From PVC group bacterium (lineage in GTDB: Bacteria; GCA-001730085; JADFSZ01), in assembly GCA_022560555.1 (NCBI GenBank), contig JADFSZ010000083.1, positions 1 through 7,713 of the forward strand: a stretch of DNA of 7,713 nt, given 5' to 3'. A program made the translations under genes and the position numbers. Positions 1-7,713 of the stretch are shown here, piece after piece (the stretch's first letter is position 1; each line of letters begins with the position of its first letter). The notes beneath the pieces are model-generated. The model saw nothing but the letters and a program-made list of their open reading frames with translations. It was not told where the DNA came from and ran no database searches.

Positions 1-1674
1 CTTCACAACACTGTTCCTCAAGAGTATGTTCTTCTCTTAACAAAACCAAGCGGAGAAGAAGAAACCATAACACCGGGATTGATTGAGGATGGTCCTTCAA
101 ATGCTCTGGACATTAATGAATTGATAACAGAGGCGGATCCTTTTGTTCCTTATCAAATACAAGCGAAGAGTAAGGCAAGAGCTTACCGTGACAGTGAGTA
201 TGGTGCCGTAAGAGAATTTATTGTAAGCAGTGTTGATGGGTCTGTTTTACCTGCTATTAGCAGTTATGATGTTTTTAATCCGACCGGGGATGGGACAGAT
301 TTAGGCCGTGACGGTATTATCCTTCTTGAAAATATTGTCTTATCGGGCGGGAGCATTGAGCCGGACGGCTTTTTTGTCCAAACCAGCACAACATCAGACT
401 TTTCTGAGGATACGGTTGGTTATTTTGCTCCTTTTAGAAATGAGCAAGATAATATCACGAATCTTATAGTGATTGACACGAGTGCCATGAATGAATTTAC
501 GGGTGAAGATTTATTGGAGCCCGGAGAGGCGGCCGAAATATTTATAAAAATAAGGACAGTGCGAATAGGAAGTGTCAGTGGAGATGAAAGCACGAAATCT
601 TCCGTTTTTGCAAATAATATTGTGATGTTGCCGGCATCTCATCCACCGGATGATTTCTTTTTAACACAAGTTGGAAATCAGCCTGACGTTTCAGTCAATA
701 TTATCAATGTCACAGGTCTTCACAATGCAGAGGCTCTTGAATATGCGATTGAATTAAGAAAGCCTTCAGGGGAAGTGGAAGTATTTGCTGTGAATAACAC
801 GGCGGCTGATCCGGATATTATTTCTCTATTAGGGTTAATCAGCGAGGCCGATAGTGTGATGCCCTATATGGTGAGCATGAAGAGTCGTACGAGGGGGTAC
901 CGTGATAGTGAAGTAAGCGAGAACCTTGAGTTTTTTGTAGATACTCTTTCGAGCACGTTGCCTGAGATTGCGGGCTTTGATGTTGTGAATCCTATTGGGT
1001 TCATTGATATGGATTTAGAAGAGTATGGTGACGGGATTATTCTTATTGAAAATATTACTCTCGAGCCAGGAGATACGCCCGATCTTCTCGTGGCCCTCGT
1101 GAGTACAGATTCCTCATTCAGTGGAGATGTGAACAGCTATTTTGTCACTTTGGATGATCATCAGAGCGGAGGAATCCCCATTGTCATTGATATTGATGCG
1201 GAAAACATTTTTACGGGCACGAAACTTATCGATGAAGGGGAGAAAGGGATTGGGTATATTAAAATTCGAACTGAGAGATCAGGCTTTTTGCCGGGACGAT
1301 GGAGTGATGATGCGAATAATGCGAGTCCCATTGCCTTGGTTGAAGAAAATGTGTTTAATGTTAACATGCTTTTGCCTCCCGATATTTCTTTGATTGAAAA
1401 CTTTTCTGTGCCTATCCCTTCGCTTGAAGTTACATTGATAGATCCGCCAAATCCGGAGTTTACGATTGTTCCCGAAGACTATATCGTAGAGTTTATCAGG
1501 CCGAGTGGATCTACTGATATCTTTCCCACAACATTTTCTAGCTTTGAAAGAAATGACTCGAATACTCTTACGGAGATAAGTCCGGATCCTTACACAATCA
1601 ATATAAAAAGCCTGGCAAGGGGATTTCGCGACAGCAATTTTGGTACCGGAGAAACATTCATATTCAATCCCTAA
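1..1674 (+). CDS. C-terminal portion of a large repeat protein, probably secreted or surface-located. The 5' end lies outside the window. Architecture is (a-b)(a-b)(a), built from a ~75-aa 'a' subdomain and a ~165-aa 'b' subdomain.
   Basis: Frame 1 is open from nt 1 (LHNTVPQEYVLLLTKPSGEEETITPGLIEDG...) to the TAA at 1672-1674. The translation of nt 4-78 aligns with the start of the next repeat unit (HNAEALEYAIELRKPSGEVEVFAV...), so the TTG at 79 used by the ORF track is not a real start. Internal repeats are conserved at protein level. No membrane helices are present, and the composition is acidic and Ser/Thr/Asn-rich. Confidence 0.8.
   Translation, partial: LHNTVPQEYVLLLTKPSGEEETITPGLIEDGPSNALDINELITEADPFVPYQIQAKSKARAYRDSEYGAVREFIVSSVDGSVLPAISSYDVFNPTGDGTDLGRDGIILLENIVLSGGSIEPDGFFVQTSTTSDFSEDTVGYFAPFRNEQDNITNLIVIDTSAMNEFTGEDLLEPGEAAEIFIKIRTVRIGSVSGDESTKSSVFANNIVMLPASHPPDDFFLTQVGNQPDVSVNIINVTGLHNAEALEYAIELRKPSGEVEVFAVNNTAADPDIISLLGLISEADSVMPYMVSMKSRTRGYRDSEVSENLEFFVDTLSSTLPEIAGFDVVNPIGFIDMDLEEYGDGIILIENITLEPGDTPDLLVALVSTDSSFSGDVNSYFVTLDDHQSGGIPIVIDIDAENIFTGTKLIDEGEKGIGYIKIRTERSGFLPGRWSDDANNASPIALVEENVFNVNMLLPPDISLIENFSVPIPSLEVTLIDPPNPEFTIVPEDYIVEFIRPSGSTDIFPTTFSSFERNDSNTLTEISPDPYTINIKSLARGFRDSNFGTGETFIFNP
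4..720 (+). repeat. Protein-level tandem repeat unit 1 (239 aa; subdomain a ~4-225, subdomain b ~226-720)
   Basis: HNTVPQEYVLLLTKPSGEEE...PYQIQAKSKARAYRDSEYGAVREFIV...GRDGIILLENIVL...IVIDTSAMNEFTGEDLLEPGE...IKIRTVRIG aligns motif by motif with unit 2. Roughly a third of positions are identical by eye. Confidence 0.8.
721..1446 (+). repeat. Protein-level tandem repeat unit 2 (242 aa; subdomain a 721-939, subdomain b 940-1446)
   Basis: HNAEALEYAIELRKPSGEVE...PYMVSMKSRTRGYRDSEVSENLEFFV...YGDGIILIENITL...IVIDIDAENIFTGTKLIDEGE...IKIRTERSG. The motifs occur in the same order and spacing as in unit 1, offset by 717 nt. Confidence 0.8.
1447..1671 (+). repeat. Terminal partial repeat unit 3 (subdomain a only, 75 aa) ending the protein
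   Basis: PNPEFTIVPEDYIVEFIRPSGSTD...PYTINIKSLARGFRDSNFGTGETFIF matches subdomain a of units 1 and 2 (EY..(4 residues)..KPSGE / PY.(4 residues)K(S).ARG(Y/F)RDS(6 residues)F). It is followed directly by the stop codon. Confidence 0.75.
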
Positions 1675-1685
1675 GAAGTACCGTA

Positions 1686-3461
1686 TTATTTTTGATCAGA
1701 TGAAATCTTTTCGATCTGGGTTGCTAAACCCGGTAAATTTGGATTGATCTGATAGGATTTTTTGAACCATTGCAATGCTTTTTTGTGATTCCCCGCTCGC
1801 TTTTCTATGACACCGTAATAGTAATACGGGTACGGGGACTTTGGGTCAAGGGCCTCAAAGCCTTGAAATACTTCGTAAGCAAGATCGATTTTTCCGCGCT
1901 TAATAAAAATATCTCCAAGCGCAACAGCTAATTTGTGATTTCCGGGACTTTGGAGAATTTGCTCAAGAATAATCTTTTCCGCCTCATCTAAATGCCCCGT
2001 TCTTGTGTATATATCGGCCAGCTGAATGGCCGCCCGGTCGTATTTTGGTTTTTTTTCCAGGGCTTTTCGAAAGAATATTTCCGCCTGAGGAAAATATGTG
2101 GTTTTAAGATAAATAAGCCCCATGTTAAAAAAATGATTGGACCGAATCACGGGTTCTTCCGGCATACGTGTGAAGAAACTGAGCAAGATTAAAATAGCGC
2201 CCAGGGTGCCAAGTTTGAGCCATTTACGATTTAAGCTATACGTGAGGATTCTCTCTAGCGTAAAACCGGCTGAAAGGCACAATAAACCCACCACCGGAAG
2301 CCGGAATCGGCCCAAAATGTAAAAGATAAAAATAGAAAAAAAGAGTCCAAGGAAAAAACATACAAACAAGCGATGATGAGGTGTTCTCTTAAATGAAAGA
2401 AAAAGTCCCGGAATGGCCAGTATCGCAATTACCCGAAAATCTACAAGAACCATTTTTAAAGCATTTGAAAAAGTTGCCATCAAATAAAAATTAACATTAT
2501 TTGGAATTTCGTATTCATTAAAAAAGCGATAGAGTTTTTGAGCTTGTAGAGCGATCCAATCAAGCGGATGCTGGTAGATGAGGATAAGCAAATGTTTGCC
2601 TAGTGCGATTGGATTGTCCCCGAATTGTTGAAGAAGCGCATGGGCTTGCCGGGAAATCTCCCATCCCCATCCGAGTGCGTCCGGTGTATTGCCGGAGATA
2701 AAAACAGTGGCGCCCTGAGCGCTGAAGGCGAGGGGAGAAAAGCCGAGACTGATATTTCTTGCTATAAAGGGAAGAATGGGAAGCAGAATTGAAGCCGAAA
2801 GGGCGAAAAGGGGGAAGAAGAACTTTGCGCTCTTTTCATTTTGAACATTTAAAAAATAAATCAAACTCCAAATAAGAAAAGGGACGAGAATCAGCGCGTT
2901 AGGACGTGTCATAATGTTGAGCCCGAGAACGATTCCGCTAAGGATCAAAAAAGGAACGCTTCTGGTTTCAAAATACCGGATTAAGAGATAAAATATGAGA
3001 ATGTTCCAAAAGCCAATGAGTGTTGCGCGAAGCAGAACACTTTCGAAATAGATAGCGTAATTGTACATTCCGTAGAGAAAAGCCGAAAGAAAACTAACGG
3101 AGGCCCGGAAAAACCTTAGCCCTATTAAATATATGAAGATACTCGTCATGATGCCTAGAAGTGTTTGTATAAGCCGCGCGGCACGAATGTCGGGTGAAAT
3201 GATTTTATAGACAGCCGCGAGGAAATAAGTGTAAAGAGGGGCTTGGTTGTAGGCGTGAGTCGCCATTTTCCAGTCGTTTGTTTTGACGATCGTTACGGCG
3301 TTCCGGTGAAATTTGATTTGGTCGTTTCCTTTAAGAAGAGTGTTGAACTCGATCGTATTAATCGTCTCAGTAAGAAAGAAAAATCGCGGCAAGAACGCAG
3401 CAATGAGTGTGAGGACAAAAAAGAAATGTTTATCGTGCCAATTCGGCAGGATGCGCTTCAT
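1686..3461 (-). CDS. Polytopic membrane glycosyltransferase of the GT-C fold (PMT_2/ArnT-like, GT39/GT83-type) with a C-terminal TPR domain
   Basis: 591-aa ORF starting at an ATG (rc of 3459-3461). The N-terminal ~430 aa form a series of hydrophobic helices (FFFVLTLIAAFLPRFFFL, LIQTLLGIMTSIFIYLIGLRFF, LIGFWNILIFYLLIRYF, VPFLILSGIVLGLNIM, ALILVPFLIWSLIYFL, FFPLFALSASILLPILPFIA, LFVCFFLGLFFSIFIFYILG, GTLGAILILLSFF). The first loop carries an acidic residue (GNDQIKFHRNA) and is followed by APLYTYFLAAV, the layout typical of PMT_2/ArnT-type enzymes. The C-terminus has TPR-like repeats. Confidence 0.75.
   Translation of the reverse strand: MKRILPNWHDKHFFFVLTLIAAFLPRFFFLTETINTIEFNTLLKGNDQIKFHRNAVTIVKTNDWKMATHAYNQAPLYTYFLAAVYKIISPDIRAARLIQTLLGIMTSIFIYLIGLRFFRASVSFLSAFLYGMYNYAIYFESVLLRATLIGFWNILIFYLLIRYFETRSVPFLILSGIVLGLNIMTRPNALILVPFLIWSLIYFLNVQNEKSAKFFFPLFALSASILLPILPFIARNISLGFSPLAFSAQGATVFISGNTPDALGWGWEISRQAHALLQQFGDNPIALGKHLLILIYQHPLDWIALQAQKLYRFFNEYEIPNNVNFYLMATFSNALKMVLVDFRVIAILAIPGLFLSFKRTPHHRLFVCFFLGLFFSIFIFYILGRFRLPVVGLLCLSAGFTLERILTYSLNRKWLKLGTLGAILILLSFFTRMPEEPVIRSNHFFNMGLIYLKTTYFPQAEIFFRKALEKKPKYDRAAIQLADIYTRTGHLDEAEKIILEQILQSPGNHKLAVALGDIFIKRGKIDLAYEVFQGFEALDPKSPYPYYYYGVIEKRAGNHKKALQWFKKSYQINPNLPGLATQIEKISSDQK
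1707..2129 (-). other. C-terminal TPR repeat domain (~4 TPR units) of the GT-C protein
   Basis: NMGLIYLKTTYFPQAEIFFRKALEKKPKYDRAAIQLADIYTRTGHLDEAEKIILEQILQSPGNHKLAVALGDIFIKRGKIDLAYEVFQGFEALDPKSPYPYYYYGVIEKRAGNHKKALQWFKKSYQINPN shows the 34-residue TPR periodicity (small/aromatic positions, A..(2 residues)F/Y..(2 residues)AL..(2 residues)P). Confidence 0.7.
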
Positions 3462-5475
3462 AATCTTCCGTTTTGATCGTGTGCCGCTGGGTAACGTATT
3501 TCAGAAGGATGTCTTCTTTAACATAGAGGCCAAGTCCCCGTCCGGAAATCATGTAGGCGCGACCAAAATATCCGAATTTGATTCGCGGGTGAACAATATC
3601 TTCTACGAGAAGAAGACGCTCGTAAGAACCCTCAACAAAATCGATATTATCGAACGATGTCGCGAAGATACGCCCTGCGGCAGAAAGAATGCCCGTTTCA
3701 CCTACTTGACATCCGATTTGACATCGGATCCCCTTTGAGTCAGCAAACTTTTTGATCTGAAGGGCATGGAGAAGGCCGCCGCATTTTGAGATGCGAATAT
3801 TGAACATATGGCAGCATTTTAACTGTAATAATTTGCGCGCTTCAGAAAGAGTTGTCAGTGATTCATCGACCATAATGGGGAGATGACTGTGTCTGGCGAT
3901 ATATGAGAAACCTTCGAGGTCCGTTTTGGAAAGCGGCTGTTCAAGTGCGCTGATATTTATTTTTGATGTGCTTTTGATCCAATTGTAAGCCTCGTTTCTA
4001 TTCCACGCGCAATTTGCGTCAACACGGATATTGACGCCCGGCCCGAGAATGTGGCGGATTATGGAAAGATTATTCGCATCATTTTCATATCCAACTTTGA
4101 CCTTGACCTGACGAAACCCAAACAAACGGATTTTCAATGCCGTTAAGATTACTTCAATTGTGTTCCCTGCGGAAATAACTCCGGAATAATACAGCTCGGA
4201 TATTTTGGGTTTTCCAAAGACGTCAGATATCGAACGGTTAAAGAAGATCCCGTATGCATCAAGTAGAGCGAGTTCGAGAGCCGCCCACGCGGCTCCGCGT
4301 GTCGTATCAGTTCGTTCATCCGACGGATTTATGTCTGAAATGCTTTTACAATATGCAATGACATCGGTGTAATTCTTAAAGCTTTTTCCGAGAACCCTGG
4401 GTATATAAATATTTTTGAGTTGAGCGACCGCGCTTTCTATGGTTTCGCCCGTGACGTAGGGACGGGGAAGCCCTTCTCCGTAACCAATAATTTCCCCTGA
4501 CAGAGTAATTCTCACGATGAGGCTGTTGGATTCTTCCCGGGATGCCAAAGCATGTGAGAATCGTTTTTTAAACGGAATATGTGTTTCAAAAATATCGACA
4601 GATTCCACATGCGTTGTAGGTACACATGTGCAATCAATAGGAAGGTCACGGGATACATTATGAATCCACGTTTGGATATCTTTTAAAATGGAAAACCTGT
4701 TTTTTCCAAATTCAAGACTATGTTGCTGATCGGGATAAATTTTTATGGATTTTTTGTAAGAGCCGAGTTGTTGATGAAATTTTAGTGTGCGCTTGTTATG
4801 TACAATCACGTCTTTTTCACCCAAGAGGGTGAGGATAGGAGTGCTGATCCGATGGGCCTTTCTGAGATAAACAAATTGCATTTTGAGCGATTCCCAAAAG
4901 AATTTGGCCGTGGCCGTTAAGAGCTTTTGAGGGTCTTCCTCAATATACTTTTGATAGGACTCTTCCTCTGTGAACATCTCGGATTCTAAAGGGATTCTAA
5001 TATGCTTTTTGGAATGAAAGATGAGGTAAAAAGGAAAAAGGATTTTGTCGAGCAACGGAATGGTTTTTTTTGTGACAACGCCGGGAGAGATAAGAACGAG
5101 AGCGTCCGCAAGTCTCGGATAATAAAGACTGAGAAGTAAGGCCGGTTTGGCGCCCCAGCAAAGGGCGAGGAGAAATACCCGTCTTCCGGGGTGACGATCT
5201 TTCGCAAAATTGATAACATTGACCAGGTCAATCACAAATTGCATAAAATACGAGATATCTCCGCGGCGTCCGTCGCTATGACCCGAACCGCGCCGATCAA
5301 AAGCGTAGAAATGAAAGCCGTATTTTTGAAAGAAAGCCCCTGATTCTTTGGCCCATTCGCTATGACTTTGGAGGCCATGGGAATAAATGATGATATCTCC
5401 GTCAGGATCTCCTTCCCAAAAGCGGGTAAAAAGCCTGATATTATCATAGGTTGTGATGTGTAGATGTTGTTCCAT
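3430..5475 (-). CDS. Bifunctional fusion protein: an N-terminal alpha/beta-hydrolase (lysophospholipase/monoacylglycerol-lipase/S33-like, Hydrolase_4 type) joined to a C-terminal enolase-superfamily enzyme of the muconate-lactonizing-enzyme (MLE) subgroup (dipeptide epimerase/OSBS/cycloisomerase-like)
   Basis: Uninterrupted 681-aa ORF starting at an ATG (rc of 5473-5475). The N-terminal half has the hydrolase motifs HG(L) oxyanion region (IIIYSHGLQSH), DRRGSGHSDG, the nucleophile elbow LLALCWGAKPA, the acid GEKDVIV and the His DQQHSLEF. The C-terminal half has a capping domain (GYGEGLPRPYVTGET), the KxK motif (QVKVKVG; K458/K460), metal ligands RVDAN (D486), LEQP (E512) and MVDES (D537), and the second catalytic Lys in RISKCGG (K564). 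Confidence 0.8.
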   Translation of the reverse strand: MEQHLHITTYDNIRLFTRFWEGDPDGDIIIYSHGLQSHSEWAKESGAFFQKYGFHFYAFDRRGSGHSDGRRGDISYFMQFVIDLVNVINFAKDRHPGRRVFLLALCWGAKPALLLSLYYPRLADALVLISPGVVTKKTIPLLDKILFPFYLIFHSKKHIRIPLESEMFTEEESYQKYIEEDPQKLLTATAKFFWESLKMQFVYLRKAHRISTPILTLLGEKDVIVHNKRTLKFHQQLGSYKKSIKIYPDQQHSLEFGKNRFSILKDIQTWIHNVSRDLPIDCTCVPTTHVESVDIFETHIPFKKRFSHALASREESNSLIVRITLSGEIIGYGEGLPRPYVTGETIESAVAQLKNIYIPRVLGKSFKNYTDVIAYCKSISDINPSDERTDTTRGAAWAALELALLDAYGIFFNRSISDVFGKPKISELYYSGVISAGNTIEVILTALKIRLFGFRQVKVKVGYENDANNLSIIRHILGPGVNIRVDANCAWNRNEAYNWIKSTSKINISALEQPLSKTDLEGFSYIARHSHLPIMVDESLTTLSEARKLLQLKCCHMFNIRISKCGGLLHALQIKKFADSKGIRCQIGCQVGETGILSAAGRIFATSFDNIDFVEGSYERLLLVEDIVHPRIKFGYFGRAYMISGRGLGLYVKEDILLKYVTQRHTIKTEDYEAHPAELAR
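3511..4614 (-). other. MR/MLE (enolase-superfamily, MLE subgroup) domain of the fusion (aa ~288-655)
   Basis: KxK, D, E, D and K catalytic/metal residues have spacings (26, 26, 25, 27 residues) like those of characterised MLE-subgroup enzymes. An N-terminal alpha+beta capping domain precedes the TIM-barrel-like part. Confidence 0.75.
4651..5475 (-). other. Alpha/beta-hydrolase domain of the fusion (aa ~1-275) with a predicted Cys106-Asp222-His252 triad
   Basis: The order and spacing of oxyanion HG, nucleophile elbow, lid region, acid and His match the canonical alpha/beta-hydrolase fold. The Cys106 codon is the rc of 5158-5160 (gca -> TGC). Confidence 0.7.
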
Positions 5476-5519
5476 GTGTTTTGATCAATGCGAGGATTTT
5501 GTCGGCCTGCGTTTATAAG

Positions 5520-5551
5520 TATTCGCGTAGTATATCAATAATGCGCGAATA
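5520..5551. promoter_or_regulatory. Perfect 8-bp inverted repeat TATTCGCG-N16-CGCGAATA (candidate operator)
   Basis: 5520-5527 tattcgcg and 5544-5551 cgcgaata are exact reverse complements. The element spans the -10 hexamer and spacer of the putative minus-strand promoter. Confidence 0.4.
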
Positions 5552-5556
5552 GTAAA
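5529..5556 (-). promoter_or_regulatory. Putative sigma70-type promoter of the hydrolase-MLE/GT-C operon
   Basis: The minus strand reads TTTACT (rc of 5551-5556), a 16-nt spacer, then TATACT (rc of 5529-5534). The predicted start near 5522 gives a ~47-nt leader before the ATG at 5475. Confidence 0.4.
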
Positions 5557-5605
5557 CCCTGAATCCCGCGGTACTTGGGGATGAAATGCTCCCTATTTCG
5601 TTTCA

Positions 5606-5620
5606 TGTAAACCATTTACA
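5606..5620. promoter_or_regulatory. 15-bp palindrome TGTAAA-cca-TTTACA (candidate operator) overlapping the leuA -35 hexamer
   Basis: 5606-5611 tgtaaa and 5615-5620 tttaca are exact reverse complements separated by 3 nt. The right arm is the -35 element of the putative leuA promoter. Confidence 0.35.
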
Positions 5621-5643
5621 GGAATCTCTCTTTTAGCTATAAT
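5615..5643 (+). promoter_or_regulatory. Near-consensus sigma70 promoter of leuA (TTTACA-17 nt-TATAAT)
   Basis: The -35 is TTTACA at 5615-5620, the spacer is 17 nt (5621-5637), and the -10 is TATAAT at 5638-5643. The leuA ATG at 5653 begins only 9 nt after the -10 hexamer. Confidence 0.55.
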
Positions 5644-5652
5644 AACGGGCTT

Positions 5653-7227
5653 ATGGAGAAGAAAGACCGACAACCGTTTTTTTATGATGTGACGCTCCGG
5701 GACGGCAATCAGGCCTTGCGCCGGCCGTGGAACACGGCTGAAAAAGAAGTTATATTCCGCCAACTCCTTAGGTTGGGCGTCCAGGCTGTCGAAGTTGGGT
5801 TCTCGGGGGCGAGTGATATGGATTTTGAGGCTTGTCAACACCTGGCAAAGATCGCGAAAAATGAGAATCTCAAAGATATCGAAATTTCCGGCCTGGCCAG
5901 GACCGTTGAGAGGGATATCAAAAAGGTGTATGACGCTATTCACGAGGCGCCCAAACCGCGGATTCATACGTTTATCGGGTTGAGCCCGTTTGCCATGGAG
6001 CATGTTCTTAAGCTCAAGTCCAAGGAAGTCCAGAAAAAGGCGATTGAGGCTGTCCGTTTTGCGAAATCTCTTTTGGGAAAGAAAGGGAGAGTCGAATTCA
6101 GCGCGGAACACTTTGGAGATTGTGCTGACAATTTAGACTTTGTGATTGAGACTTTTCTCGGCTGTATTGAAGCGGGCGCGAGCGTGATCAATCTTCCGAA
6201 TACAGTGGAGAGAACCCGCCCTAGTGAGTTTATCGAACTGGTTCAAAAAGCGGCGGATGCTTTGCCGAAAGACAGTGTCATGATCGCGGTCCATACGCAC
6301 AATGACTTGGGAATGGCCACAGCAACGACGGTAGAAAGCTATTTTGCCGGAGCCACTCAGCTGGAATGTTGCTTAAACGGTCTCGGTGAGCGAGCCGGCA
6401 ACACGAACCTTTTTGAAGTGGCCGTGGCTCTTCATTGCTCGGGCGTCAATGTCCCGCTCAACATGAATGAAATTTATGAAACAAGTCTTCTTATTTCTGA
6501 GATGTCCGGTGTTCCGATTTATGAGAAAGCTCCGCTAGTAGGATCTGACGCGTTGGCGCATCGATCCGGAATACATCAGGATGGTACAGCGAAAACGAAA
6601 GATATGAAGAAAGGCGCGTATCGTTCGTTTGATCCGACTTTGATTGGTCTCGAACCCGGGGAATTGATCACGTTTACAAGTCAATCCGGAAAAACGGCTA
6701 TATGTGAAATTATTCAGCAGGCCGGATGGCCGATATCGATTAAAGAAGCAGTCTATCTTCAACCGTTCATGAAAAGCCGGGCCGAAGAAGTCGGAGAGCT
6801 CAAAGAAGATGAGGTTTTTGATGTCTATTTTAAAAAACTTTTTCATGTTGATGGAAATTTTGAATTTCATGATTTTTTCGAAATTGTAAAGCAGATACCT
6901 TCCTCCAAGGAAAAAAGTCATCTTGAATTTTATCGTATTAAATATTCTTACGATAAGGAAAAGAGAAGTCAAGAAACCAAAGGAGATGGTCCGATTGATG
7001 CATGTCTGAATGCGATTCGTGAAGCTGGTTTTCAGGTAAAACTGCTTCATTATGAACAGAAGGCTGTGCAGAAGGAGCGAAAAGGTTCTGCCTCCGATGC
7101 GATGACAGTGATCAAATTGAAAAATGACAATAATGGCGAAGTCGTTATCTGCCGCGGGCTCAATCCGGATACGCGCGCGGCCAATATCGAAGCGATCTTT
7201 AACGGGCTGAATCTTTTGGGCCTCTAG
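5653..7227 (+). CDS. leuA: 2-isopropylmalate synthase (DRE-TIM/HMGL-like catalytic domain plus LeuA-dimer regulatory domain)
   Basis: 524-aa ORF. The N-terminus FYDVTLRDGNQALRRPW...EVGFSGASDMDF matches the LRDGNQAL/EVGF(P)SAS signature of the long-form LeuA family. It also has NLPNTVERTRPSEF, the metal-binding HTHNDLGMA, NGLGERAGN and AHRSGIHQDG. The C-terminal GDGPIDACLNAIRE...ASDAMTVIKL...ANIEAIFNGLN matches the leucine-binding regulatory domain. An in-frame TAA at 5608-5610 excludes an upstream start. Confidence 0.85.
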   Translation: MEKKDRQPFFYDVTLRDGNQALRRPWNTAEKEVIFRQLLRLGVQAVEVGFSGASDMDFEACQHLAKIAKNENLKDIEISGLARTVERDIKKVYDAIHEAPKPRIHTFIGLSPFAMEHVLKLKSKEVQKKAIEAVRFAKSLLGKKGRVEFSAEHFGDCADNLDFVIETFLGCIEAGASVINLPNTVERTRPSEFIELVQKAADALPKDSVMIAVHTHNDLGMATATTVESYFAGATQLECCLNGLGERAGNTNLFEVAVALHCSGVNVPLNMNEIYETSLLISEMSGVPIYEKAPLVGSDALAHRSGIHQDGTAKTKDMKKGAYRSFDPTLIGLEPGELITFTSQSGKTAICEIIQQAGWPISIKEAVYLQPFMKSRAEEVGELKEDEVFDVYFKKLFHVDGNFEFHDFFEIVKQIPSSKEKSHLEFYRIKYSYDKEKRSQETKGDGPIDACLNAIREAGFQVKLLHYEQKAVQKERKGSASDAMTVIKLKNDNNGEVVICRGLNPDTRAANIEAIFNGLNLLGL

Positions 7228-7250
7228 AGTTTTTCTTTCCGGTAAACCTT

Positions 7251-7713
7251 ATGTCCCTTGATGATTTTGGAAAAAACGAGTACTTTATGAAAGAGGCCTT
7301 AAAAGAAGCTATGAGGGCTTATGATCATGATGAGGTGCCTGTTGGGGCTGTGATCGCGTTTGAGGGTAAACTCATTGCGCGGGCTCATAATCAGGTAGAA
7401 CTCTTAAAAGATCCGACGGCCCATGCGGAGATGATTGCGATCACGCAGGCGTGTGGGTCTTTGGGGCGCTGGCGCTTGACGGGGTGTCGGCTCTATGTTA
7501 GCCTTGAGCCGTGCTCGATGTGCGCGGGGGCCATAGTTTTAGCGAGGCTGGACGCGGTCTTTTTTGGAGCAAAGGATCCCAAGGCGGGGGCTTGCGGGTC
7601 ATTGAGAAATATTGTGTTAGATGATCGTCTGAATCATAAGGTTCAGCTTGTGTCCGGTTTGATGGAGAACGACAGCCAGGATCTCCTGCAGGAATTTTTT
7701 CGAAAAATGAGAA
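7251..7713 (+). CDS. tadA: tRNA-specific adenosine(34) deaminase TadA, truncated at its 3' end by the window edge
   Basis: This ORF is not in the supplied track because there is no stop within the window. Hand translation from the ATG at 7251 gives MSLDDFGKNEYFMKEALKEAMRAYDHDEVPVGAVIAFEGKLIARAHNQVELLKDPTAHAEMIAITQACGSLGRWRLTGCRLYVSLEPCSMCAGAIVLARLDAVFFGAKDPKAGACGSLRNIVLDDRLNHKVQLVSGLMENDSQDLLQEFFRKMR. The zinc motifs H-A-E and P-C-x-M-C and the GA.DPK.G(A) segment are the TadA/CDA-fold signature. An alternative start exists at the ATG at 7287. Confidence 0.85.
   Translation, partial: MSLDDFGKNEYFMKEALKEAMRAYDHDEVPVGAVIAFEGKLIARAHNQVELLKDPTAHAEMIAITQACGSLGRWRLTGCRLYVSLEPCSMCAGAIVLARLDAVFFGAKDPKAGACGSLRNIVLDDRLNHKVQLVSGLMENDSQDLLQEFFRKMR

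Follow-up and report, generated by a model that had tools for sequence, protein, structure and literature searches.

The question raised by this locus is whether an alpha/beta-hydrolase domain that carries Cys instead of Ser at its nucleophile elbow is a genuine member of a Cys-dependent lineage and, if so, what chemistry it might perform. The domain forms the N-terminal part of a fusion protein of 681 amino acids (aa), whose C-terminal part is an MLE-subgroup enolase-superfamily domain, and it is encoded in a stretch of 7,713 nucleotides from a PVC group bacterium (contig JADFSZ010000083.1 of assembly GCA_022560555.1, positions 1 to 7,713 of the forward strand), hereafter called the window. 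An earlier note on the letters of the window had pointed out the Cys and connected it with dienelactone hydrolase (DLH), the enzyme that follows an MLE-family cycloisomerase in chlorocatechol degradation. Our analysis supported the Cys, which was conserved together with the other residues of a predicted triad in a monoacylglycerol lipase (MGL)-like domain linked to MLE-type and GH3 genes, and spoke against the connection with DLH.

In the primary sequence of the fusion protein, Pfam detected Hydrolase_4 at aa 28–255 (7e-42) and MR_MLE_C at aa 453–655 (2e-38). The elbow reads A-L-C-W-G-A with a TGC codon for Cys106, as first noticed (Table 1). In a phmmer search against PDB sequences, human MGL was matched at 5e-16 with no gaps across the three triad positions; Cys106 ('vfllalC') fell on MGL Ser122 ('vfllghS'), Asp222 on Asp239, and His252 on His269 (chain numbering of 3pe6). 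AlphaFold2 (AF2) modeling gave a predicted local distance difference test (pLDDT) of 89.4 and a predicted template-modeling score (pTM) of 0.73 for the full-length fusion, and a pLDDT of 94.5 and a pTM of 0.92 for the hydrolase domain alone. In both models, strand 100–105 ran into helix 106–118 with Cys106 at the turn, and residues 141–205 formed the cap helices in the domain model. Thus alignment and models alike placed Cys106 at the strand-turn-helix nucleophile elbow and in the nucleophile column, with Asp222 and His252 retained as acid and base. The string 'DRRGSGHSDG' paired with MGL 'DHVGHGQSEG', the post-strand-4 motif, and therefore did not represent a second elbow, which agrees with the earlier placement of its GSGHS outside the elbow. 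A Cys106-His252-Asp222 triad geometry is predicted from this alignment and from the close superposition of the domain model on MGL.

The profile and structural comparisons indicated that the hydrolase domain has an MGL-like (Hydrolase_4) fold. Hydrolase_4 (PF12146) scored 143.7 bits against a cut-off of 27 bits, and profile positions 6–235 of 239 were covered. The domain model matched human MGL (3jw8/3pe6) with a template-modeling (TM) score of 0.89–0.90 and a root-mean-square deviation of 2.0–2.2 Å in Foldseek, followed by Mycobacterium tuberculosis Rv0183 (6eic) and by yeast and archaeal MGLs. The top 50 Foldseek neighbours were MGLs, thioesterases, and esterases, and DLH was not among them. 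The Pfam DLH profile (PF01738) scored 27.1 bits on aa 186–254 only, corresponding to profile positions 121–188 of 217. With MGL/lysophospholipase-like hydrolases the domain shares the common fold and cap (TM 0.88–0.90), the His-Gly (HG) motif, the small-x-nucleophile-x-small elbow, and the positions of Asp and His; it differs from them in its Cys nucleophile (the Ser of G-x-S-x-G being replaced), in showing only 19–24% identity, and in its enolase-superfamily fusion partner. The gene context also differs, being GH3 and MLE-type genes for hydrolases of the window type and lipid catabolism for those of the MGL type. The small-x-nucleophile-x-small pattern holds because Ala is frequent two residues before the nucleophile in the subfamily, as in MANCWGA and LAVSWGG.

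The conservation of the Cys was examined in homologues of 30–42% identity and in near-identical metagenome copies. In an alignment of the window protein with 57 full-length fusion homologues (30–37% identity), the elbow column of the 58 proteins contained 56 Cys, one Ser (P0021), and one gap, the Cys thus being conserved among homologues of the fusion, a point that the earlier note had proposed to check; D222, H252, H33, and G34 were kept in 57 of 57. All of the 20 nearest stand-alone hydrolases likewise carried Cys, each in the context x-C-W-G-A-K. Sequences that share a 90% cluster with the window protein, drawn from independent NCBI, ENA, and JGI assemblies, retained FLLALCWGAK; therefore, Cys106 is not a sequencing error. 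In a JGI metagenome contig of 6852 bp, the same gene was called as two products (P0292 and P0294), a 178-aa N-terminal piece that diverged after 'DKILF' in the cap and a 409-aa piece corresponding to the MLE domain. This copy reflects either an assembly error or a broken hydrolase domain.

To place the Cys in a wider family, we typed the nucleophile in two larger sets. Exhaustive searching of 1.84 billion representatives with phmmer yielded 5245 matches, and the best 147 representative clusters comprised 56 of the Cys type and 91 of the Ser type, with His, and Asp or in a few cases Glu, in all clusters where the alignment extended to those positions. A scan of species genomes revealed relatives in no fewer than 526 stretches; the 80 best loci comprised 29 Cys-type and 51 Ser-type loci, the Cys lineage spanning at least nine phyla. 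On a FastTree phylogeny of 223 domains, the Cys/Ser label changed 8 times, compared with approximately 66 times when labels were shuffled, and at least three of the changes were forced by well-supported branches. These sequence comparisons indicated that, in a few large lineages, Cys is an old state that has been inherited stably, and they assigned the window protein to a Cys-type lineage of the lipase-like family that is large and undescribed. The Cys and Ser types also differed at the residue before the nucleophile, at the third residue after it (Ala versus Gly), at positions 132–135, and at the residue following the His; these differences may be a lineage effect.

In the fused MLE-type domain, the catalytic set was intact: K458 and K460 (the K-x-K motif of strand 2), D486, E512, and D537 (metal ligands), and K564 (strand 6) were invariant in 58 of 58 proteins. 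The nearest PDB entry, by both sequence and fold, was N-succinyl Arg/Lys racemase 2p88 (3e-37), followed by dipeptide epimerases (1e-36 to 3e-35), and muconate cycloisomerases ranked later, from 3e-28. All NCBIfam equivalog models scored far under their cut-offs, including muconate/chloromuconate cycloisomerase TIGR02534 (135.4 versus 334.95 bits) and L-Ala-D/L-Glu epimerase (112 versus 500 bits). The N-succinyl-amino-acid racemase and the dipeptide epimerases (2p88, 1jpm/1tkk, 3jva, and 3r0k) are thus the closest solved relatives and have the complete K-x-K, D, E, D, K set in common with the window domain, which differs from them in being fused to a hydrolase. The substrates of these relatives, N-acylated amino acids with a free carboxylate, are exactly the type of product that a GH3 ligase makes. 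Each domain of the window protein was closer to unfused genes than to its counterparts in fusions (42 and 39% versus 32–34% identity for the hydrolase, and 46–47% versus 41–42% for the MLE domain). This suggested, from the sequences, that the window fusion arose independently of other fusions, and an independent fusion in turn argues for functional coupling of the hydrolase and the MLE domain. Members of the same MLE clade (40–43% identity) were also found fused to a haem-oxygenase-like domain (PF14518), in proteins of approximately 623 aa (P0069–P0120) from many metagenome proteins, some of them labelled Binatia.

The neighbourhoods of homologues in metagenome and genome loci showed a conserved order, in which a Cys-type hydrolase gene immediately precedes, or is fused to, an MLE-type gene, followed by a GH3 amido synthetase gene. 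After GH3 there was often a gene for a small cyclic-nucleotide (cNMP)-binding protein and then one for a cNMP-binding patatin phospholipase. Among the 29 Cys-type species loci, the hydrolase was upstream of or fused to MLE in 27, and GH3 was also visible in 25; these loci came mainly from Melainabacteria/Cyanobacteriota, Chloroflexota, Thermomicrobiota, Actinomycetota, Omnitrophota, and Auribacterota. Of the 51 Ser-type loci, 42 of which belonged to Planctomycetota, 22 had MLE followed by the hydrolase and 24 had no MLE within 6 kb. The fused form occurred in at least four other species, and the four fused species loci were all of the Cys type. Catechol-pathway genes were absent from all eight annotated metagenome loci of homologues, where GH3, cNMP-binding, and patatin genes were the usual neighbours. 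In a locus from a Candidatus Auribacterota metagenome-assembled genome (L011:5162-6807), a Ser-type paralogue (IGLSLGA) and a Cys-type paralogue (MGLCWGA) stand in tandem before MLE and GH3. Since both occur in one operon, one type cannot simply replace the other, and they provide a natural Ser/Cys pair for studying the effect of a nucleophile switch.

The source genome is small; its assembly consists of 1.66 Mb in 222 contigs, with 43% GC and 91.5% completeness. The fusion gene is present in a single copy. Three GH3 paralogues were found elsewhere: one at C3:597-2273, one on contig C53, and a fragment at C26:8-220. At C53:3075-7198, the GH3 gene is followed by a 147-aa open reading frame (ORF) and then by a gene for a 684-aa protein with cNMP-binding and patatin domains. 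The genome thus contains the partners of the conserved cassette, but on contigs other than that of the fusion. No intradiol dioxygenase (PF00775) was found in this 91.5% complete genome. The genome is phylogenetically isolated, 2 of 40 relatives belonging to the same phylum and the others sharing only the domain, and the fusion was absent from both same-phylum genomes examined. Downstream of the fusion gene in the window is a gene for a GT-C/TPR membrane protein. No homologue of the GT-C protein stood beside the hydrolase or MLE genes in the 80 other species loci; we therefore excluded it from the conserved module, and its pairing with the fusion seems lineage-specific.

Table 1. Positions of the fusion gene, its predicted functional residues, and the other genes of the window.
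Feature	Position	Strand	Basis or remark
Fusion ORF, 681 aa (N-terminal alpha/beta-hydrolase, C-terminal MLE-subgroup enolase-superfamily domain)	3430..5475	-	Pfam matches to Hydrolase_4 and MR_MLE_C
Alpha/beta-hydrolase domain with cap, MGL-like, aa 1–279	4639..5475	-	AF2, Foldseek, phmmer (MGL 5e-16)
HG oxyanion-hole motif after strand 3, H33-G34	5374..5379	-	57/57 in fusion alignment; aligned to MGL 'shGa'
Nucleophile elbow, A104-L105-C106-W107-G108-A109	5149..5166	-	Codons gcc ctt tgc tgg ggc gcc (5166->5149); phmmer alignment; AF2
Predicted catalytic nucleophile, Cys106 (codon TGC)	5158..5160	-	Alignment to MGL Ser122; conservation in homologues
Predicted triad acid, Asp222 codon	4810..4812	-	Alignment to MGL Asp239; 57/57 in fusion alignment
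Predicted triad base, His252 codon	4720..4722	-	Alignment to MGL His269; 57/57 in fusion alignment
MLE-subgroup enolase-superfamily domain, aa 286–681	3433..4620	-	K458-x-K460, D486, E512, D537, K564
GT-C (PMT_2) and TPR membrane protein gene, downstream of fusion gene	1686..3461	-	Start overlaps fusion 3' end by 32 nt
Repeat protein, 557 aa, open-ended	1..1674	+	No Pfam match at E <= 0.001

From these results we consider it reasonably likely that a Cys106-His252-Asp222 triad operates in the MGL-like domain, fused to an intact MLE domain, and that the protein takes part in a GH3-linked acyl transfer pathway. In such a pathway, a GH3 ligase would use ATP to join a free fatty acid to an amino acid, and the MLE domain would abstract the alpha-proton of the resulting N-acyl amino acid conjugate, which would thereby be epimerised. 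Cys106, activated by His252 and Asp222, would attack a fatty-acyl ester or thioester to form an acyl-thioenzyme, with stabilisation coming from the backbone amides that follow H33-G34 and the one at W107. From Cys106, the acyl group would then pass to an acceptor on the GH3-made, MLE-epimerised conjugate, by an O-acylation like that of OlsI or by a transfer of the BAAT/PhaC type, two systems discussed below. Thus, the hydrolase domain probably acts on fatty-acyl amino acids and not on chlorinated aromatics. The earlier hint at lactone or thioester rather than lipid-ester chemistry holds in part: an acyl-thioenzyme is reasonable, whereas the exclusion of lipid esters is probably wrong, since the fold points to an acyl substrate that resembles a lipid.

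For the fate of the acyl group, we tentatively favour an acceptor on the N-acyl amino acid, with water as a somewhat less probable acceptor. Simple hydrolysis seems less likely than transfer because Cys has long been maintained in a family whose hydrolases use Ser, because Ser-to-Cys exchanges generally cripple hydrolysis (engineered exchanges in such hydrolases usually collapse it; PMC6642262), and because precedents for transfer exist in BAAT, PhaC, and Cys-type thioesterases. More speculatively, and at present doubtfully, the Cys-type hydrolase, MLE, and GH3 may constitute an undescribed multi-phylum pathway, often under cyclic-nucleotide control, for stereo-inverted (D-configured), O-acylated fatty-acyl amino-acid lipids or signals, in which the Cys enzyme would represent a new class of thioester-forming lipid acyltransferase derived from the MGL family. 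The Cys offers a simple experimental handle, through which the function of this widespread but uncharacterised gene module can be tested directly.

Several observations weigh against an acyl-transferring Cys enzyme that works with MLE and GH3. The MGL-like fold and the patatin neighbour would be just as compatible with a plain lipid hydrolase. Only approximately four independent Cys/Ser switches among the 80 loci underlie the association of Cys with gene order; this association represents co-inheritance, not demonstrated co-evolution, and we claim no significance for it. Ser-type relatives in Planctomycetota also adjoin MLE genes, and therefore Cys is not needed for the partnership with MLE. 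The window fusion gene is not beside GH3, the GH3 copies lying on other contigs of a fragmented assembly and its downstream neighbour being the GT-C/TPR gene. Finally, OlsI carries Ser and is not orthologous, so that it can support acyl transfer as a functional analogy only.

The alternative that survives best, though we hold it to be rather unlikely, is that the domain is a thiol hydrolase and not a transferase. It might be a lysophospholipase/MGL-type esterase that, together with patatin, frees fatty acids for GH3, or a stereoselective deacylase that closes an acylate-racemise-deacylate cycle formed by GH3, MLE, and the hydrolase; the latter version resembles the N-succinyl-amino-acid racemase route for amino-acid inversion. 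Such an enzyme would fit the best structural and sequence relatives, which are MGLs, the recurrence of patatin genes in the cassette and next to a GH3 gene in the source genome, and the closeness of the MLE domain to N-succinyl Arg/Lys racemase. Cys nucleophiles are also common in amidases. OlsH-type GH3 enzymes take free fatty acids (PMC12493201). However, a thiol hydrolase leaves unexplained why Cys has been retained for so long among Ser-using hydrolytic relatives, and the usual collapse of hydrolytic activity in engineered Ser-to-Cys exchanges speaks against it. The fusion of a first-step lipase to a last-step epimerase would also be less natural than that of enzymes sharing a substrate, and the tandem locus of Candidatus Auribacterota already has a Ser-type paralogue adjoining the Cys-type one.

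It is very improbable that the hydrolase domain is instead a non-catalytic scaffold or a redox-sensing module in which the Cys is not a nucleophile. The MLE domain could use its partner just for substrate binding or oligomerisation, but pseudoenzymes usually lose catalytic residues, whereas Asp222, His252, and the HG motif were kept with the Cys throughout the fusion homologues, and the typed clusters likewise had His and Asp (Glu in a few) as far as the alignment reached. Least credible is a DLH-like lactone hydrolase that would follow an MLE-type cycloisomerase and act on a compound resembling (chloro)muconate, as the earlier note suggested. Cys-His-Asp triads in the alpha/beta-hydrolase fold are best known from DLH (PMC11878206), there is a weak partial match to the DLH profile, and the structural neighbours of the C-terminal domain include muconate cycloisomerases. 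We nevertheless rejected this pathway because of the short profile coverage (27 bits against 143.7 for Hydrolase_4), the top 50 structural neighbours without DLH, the MLE domain falling far below the muconate cycloisomerase cut-off (135 versus 335 bits), the lack of an intradiol dioxygenase in the 91.5% complete genome, and a gene context of GH3 (beside the hydrolase in 25 of the 29 Cys-type species loci), cNMP-binding, and patatin genes, with no catechol-pathway genes in the eight annotated metagenome loci.

Our literature search found no account of a Cys-type MGL-like clade or of a hydrolase-MLE-GH3 module, the term 'GH3' being dominated there by glycoside hydrolase family 3. A single bacterial relative of the lineage's GH3 ligase has been characterised, in 2025. 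This is the GH3-like OlsH of Singulisphaera acidiphila, which uses free fatty acid and ATP to produce N-acyl-ornithine. The O-acylation step of the ornithine-lipid pathway is catalyzed by its partner OlsI, an alpha/beta-hydrolase that acts as an O-acyltransferase; the active site of OlsI was not analysed in that study (PMC12493201). OlsI is the only characterised GH3-partnered hydrolase. To compare it with the window domain, we recovered OlsI (Sinac_1601) from 401 Planctomycetia genomes with the published forward primer, which gave three exact matches. The ORF (L095:661-1533) starts with MNPTVRKFFDL, ends with TSTISHQNR as the reverse primer predicts, and is followed by a methyltransferase gene. 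OlsI had a G-S-S-L-G-G elbow with Ser, its best Pfam match was Abhydrolase_1, and in BLASTP it matched the window domain only around the elbow (45 residues, E = 0.004). Orthology with OlsI was therefore rejected, the two proteins being related at the superfamily level only. The OlsI-like co-location with a GH3 ligase was seen in the 25 Cys-type species loci given above but not in the window, whose assembly is fragmented, and the OlsHGI operon has no MLE-type gene, unlike the Cys-type cassette. In a planctomycete-type operon (L087:110-6798 and L038:2-6795), GH3, methyltransferase, (sulfatase), one or two DUF1571/LolA-like, MLE, and Ser-type hydrolase genes were found together, an arrangement like olsH-olsG-olsI with the addition of DUF1571 and MLE genes.

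In their chemistry, parallels to the proposed reaction come from enzymes with a catalytic Cys. BAAT (bile acid-CoA:amino acid N-acyltransferase) has the alpha/beta-hydrolase fold, and its products are N-acyl amino acids. BAAT joins acyl-CoA to amino acids via a catalytic Cys (PMC10470208). BAAT, the PHA synthase PhaC, and Cys-type thioesterases of non-ribosomal peptide synthetases such as MacB-TE all form a thioester acyl-enzyme on Cys, from which an amine or hydroxyl acceptor, instead of water, takes up the acyl group. The likeness of these enzymes to the window domain is mechanistic only, and no sequence relationship is expected. DLH has a Cys-His-Asp triad on the alpha/beta-hydrolase fold in common with the window domain, where the triad is assigned by alignment, but DLH belongs to another family that matches weakly in the acid/His region only, lacks an MGL-type cap, and has a different pathway context. 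A superfamily survey of 2024 named C-D-H triads only for dienelactone hydrolase, PhaZ, and PHA synthase (PMC11878206); the Cys-type lineage within the MGL-like family would add to these few families with natural Cys-His-Asp triads.

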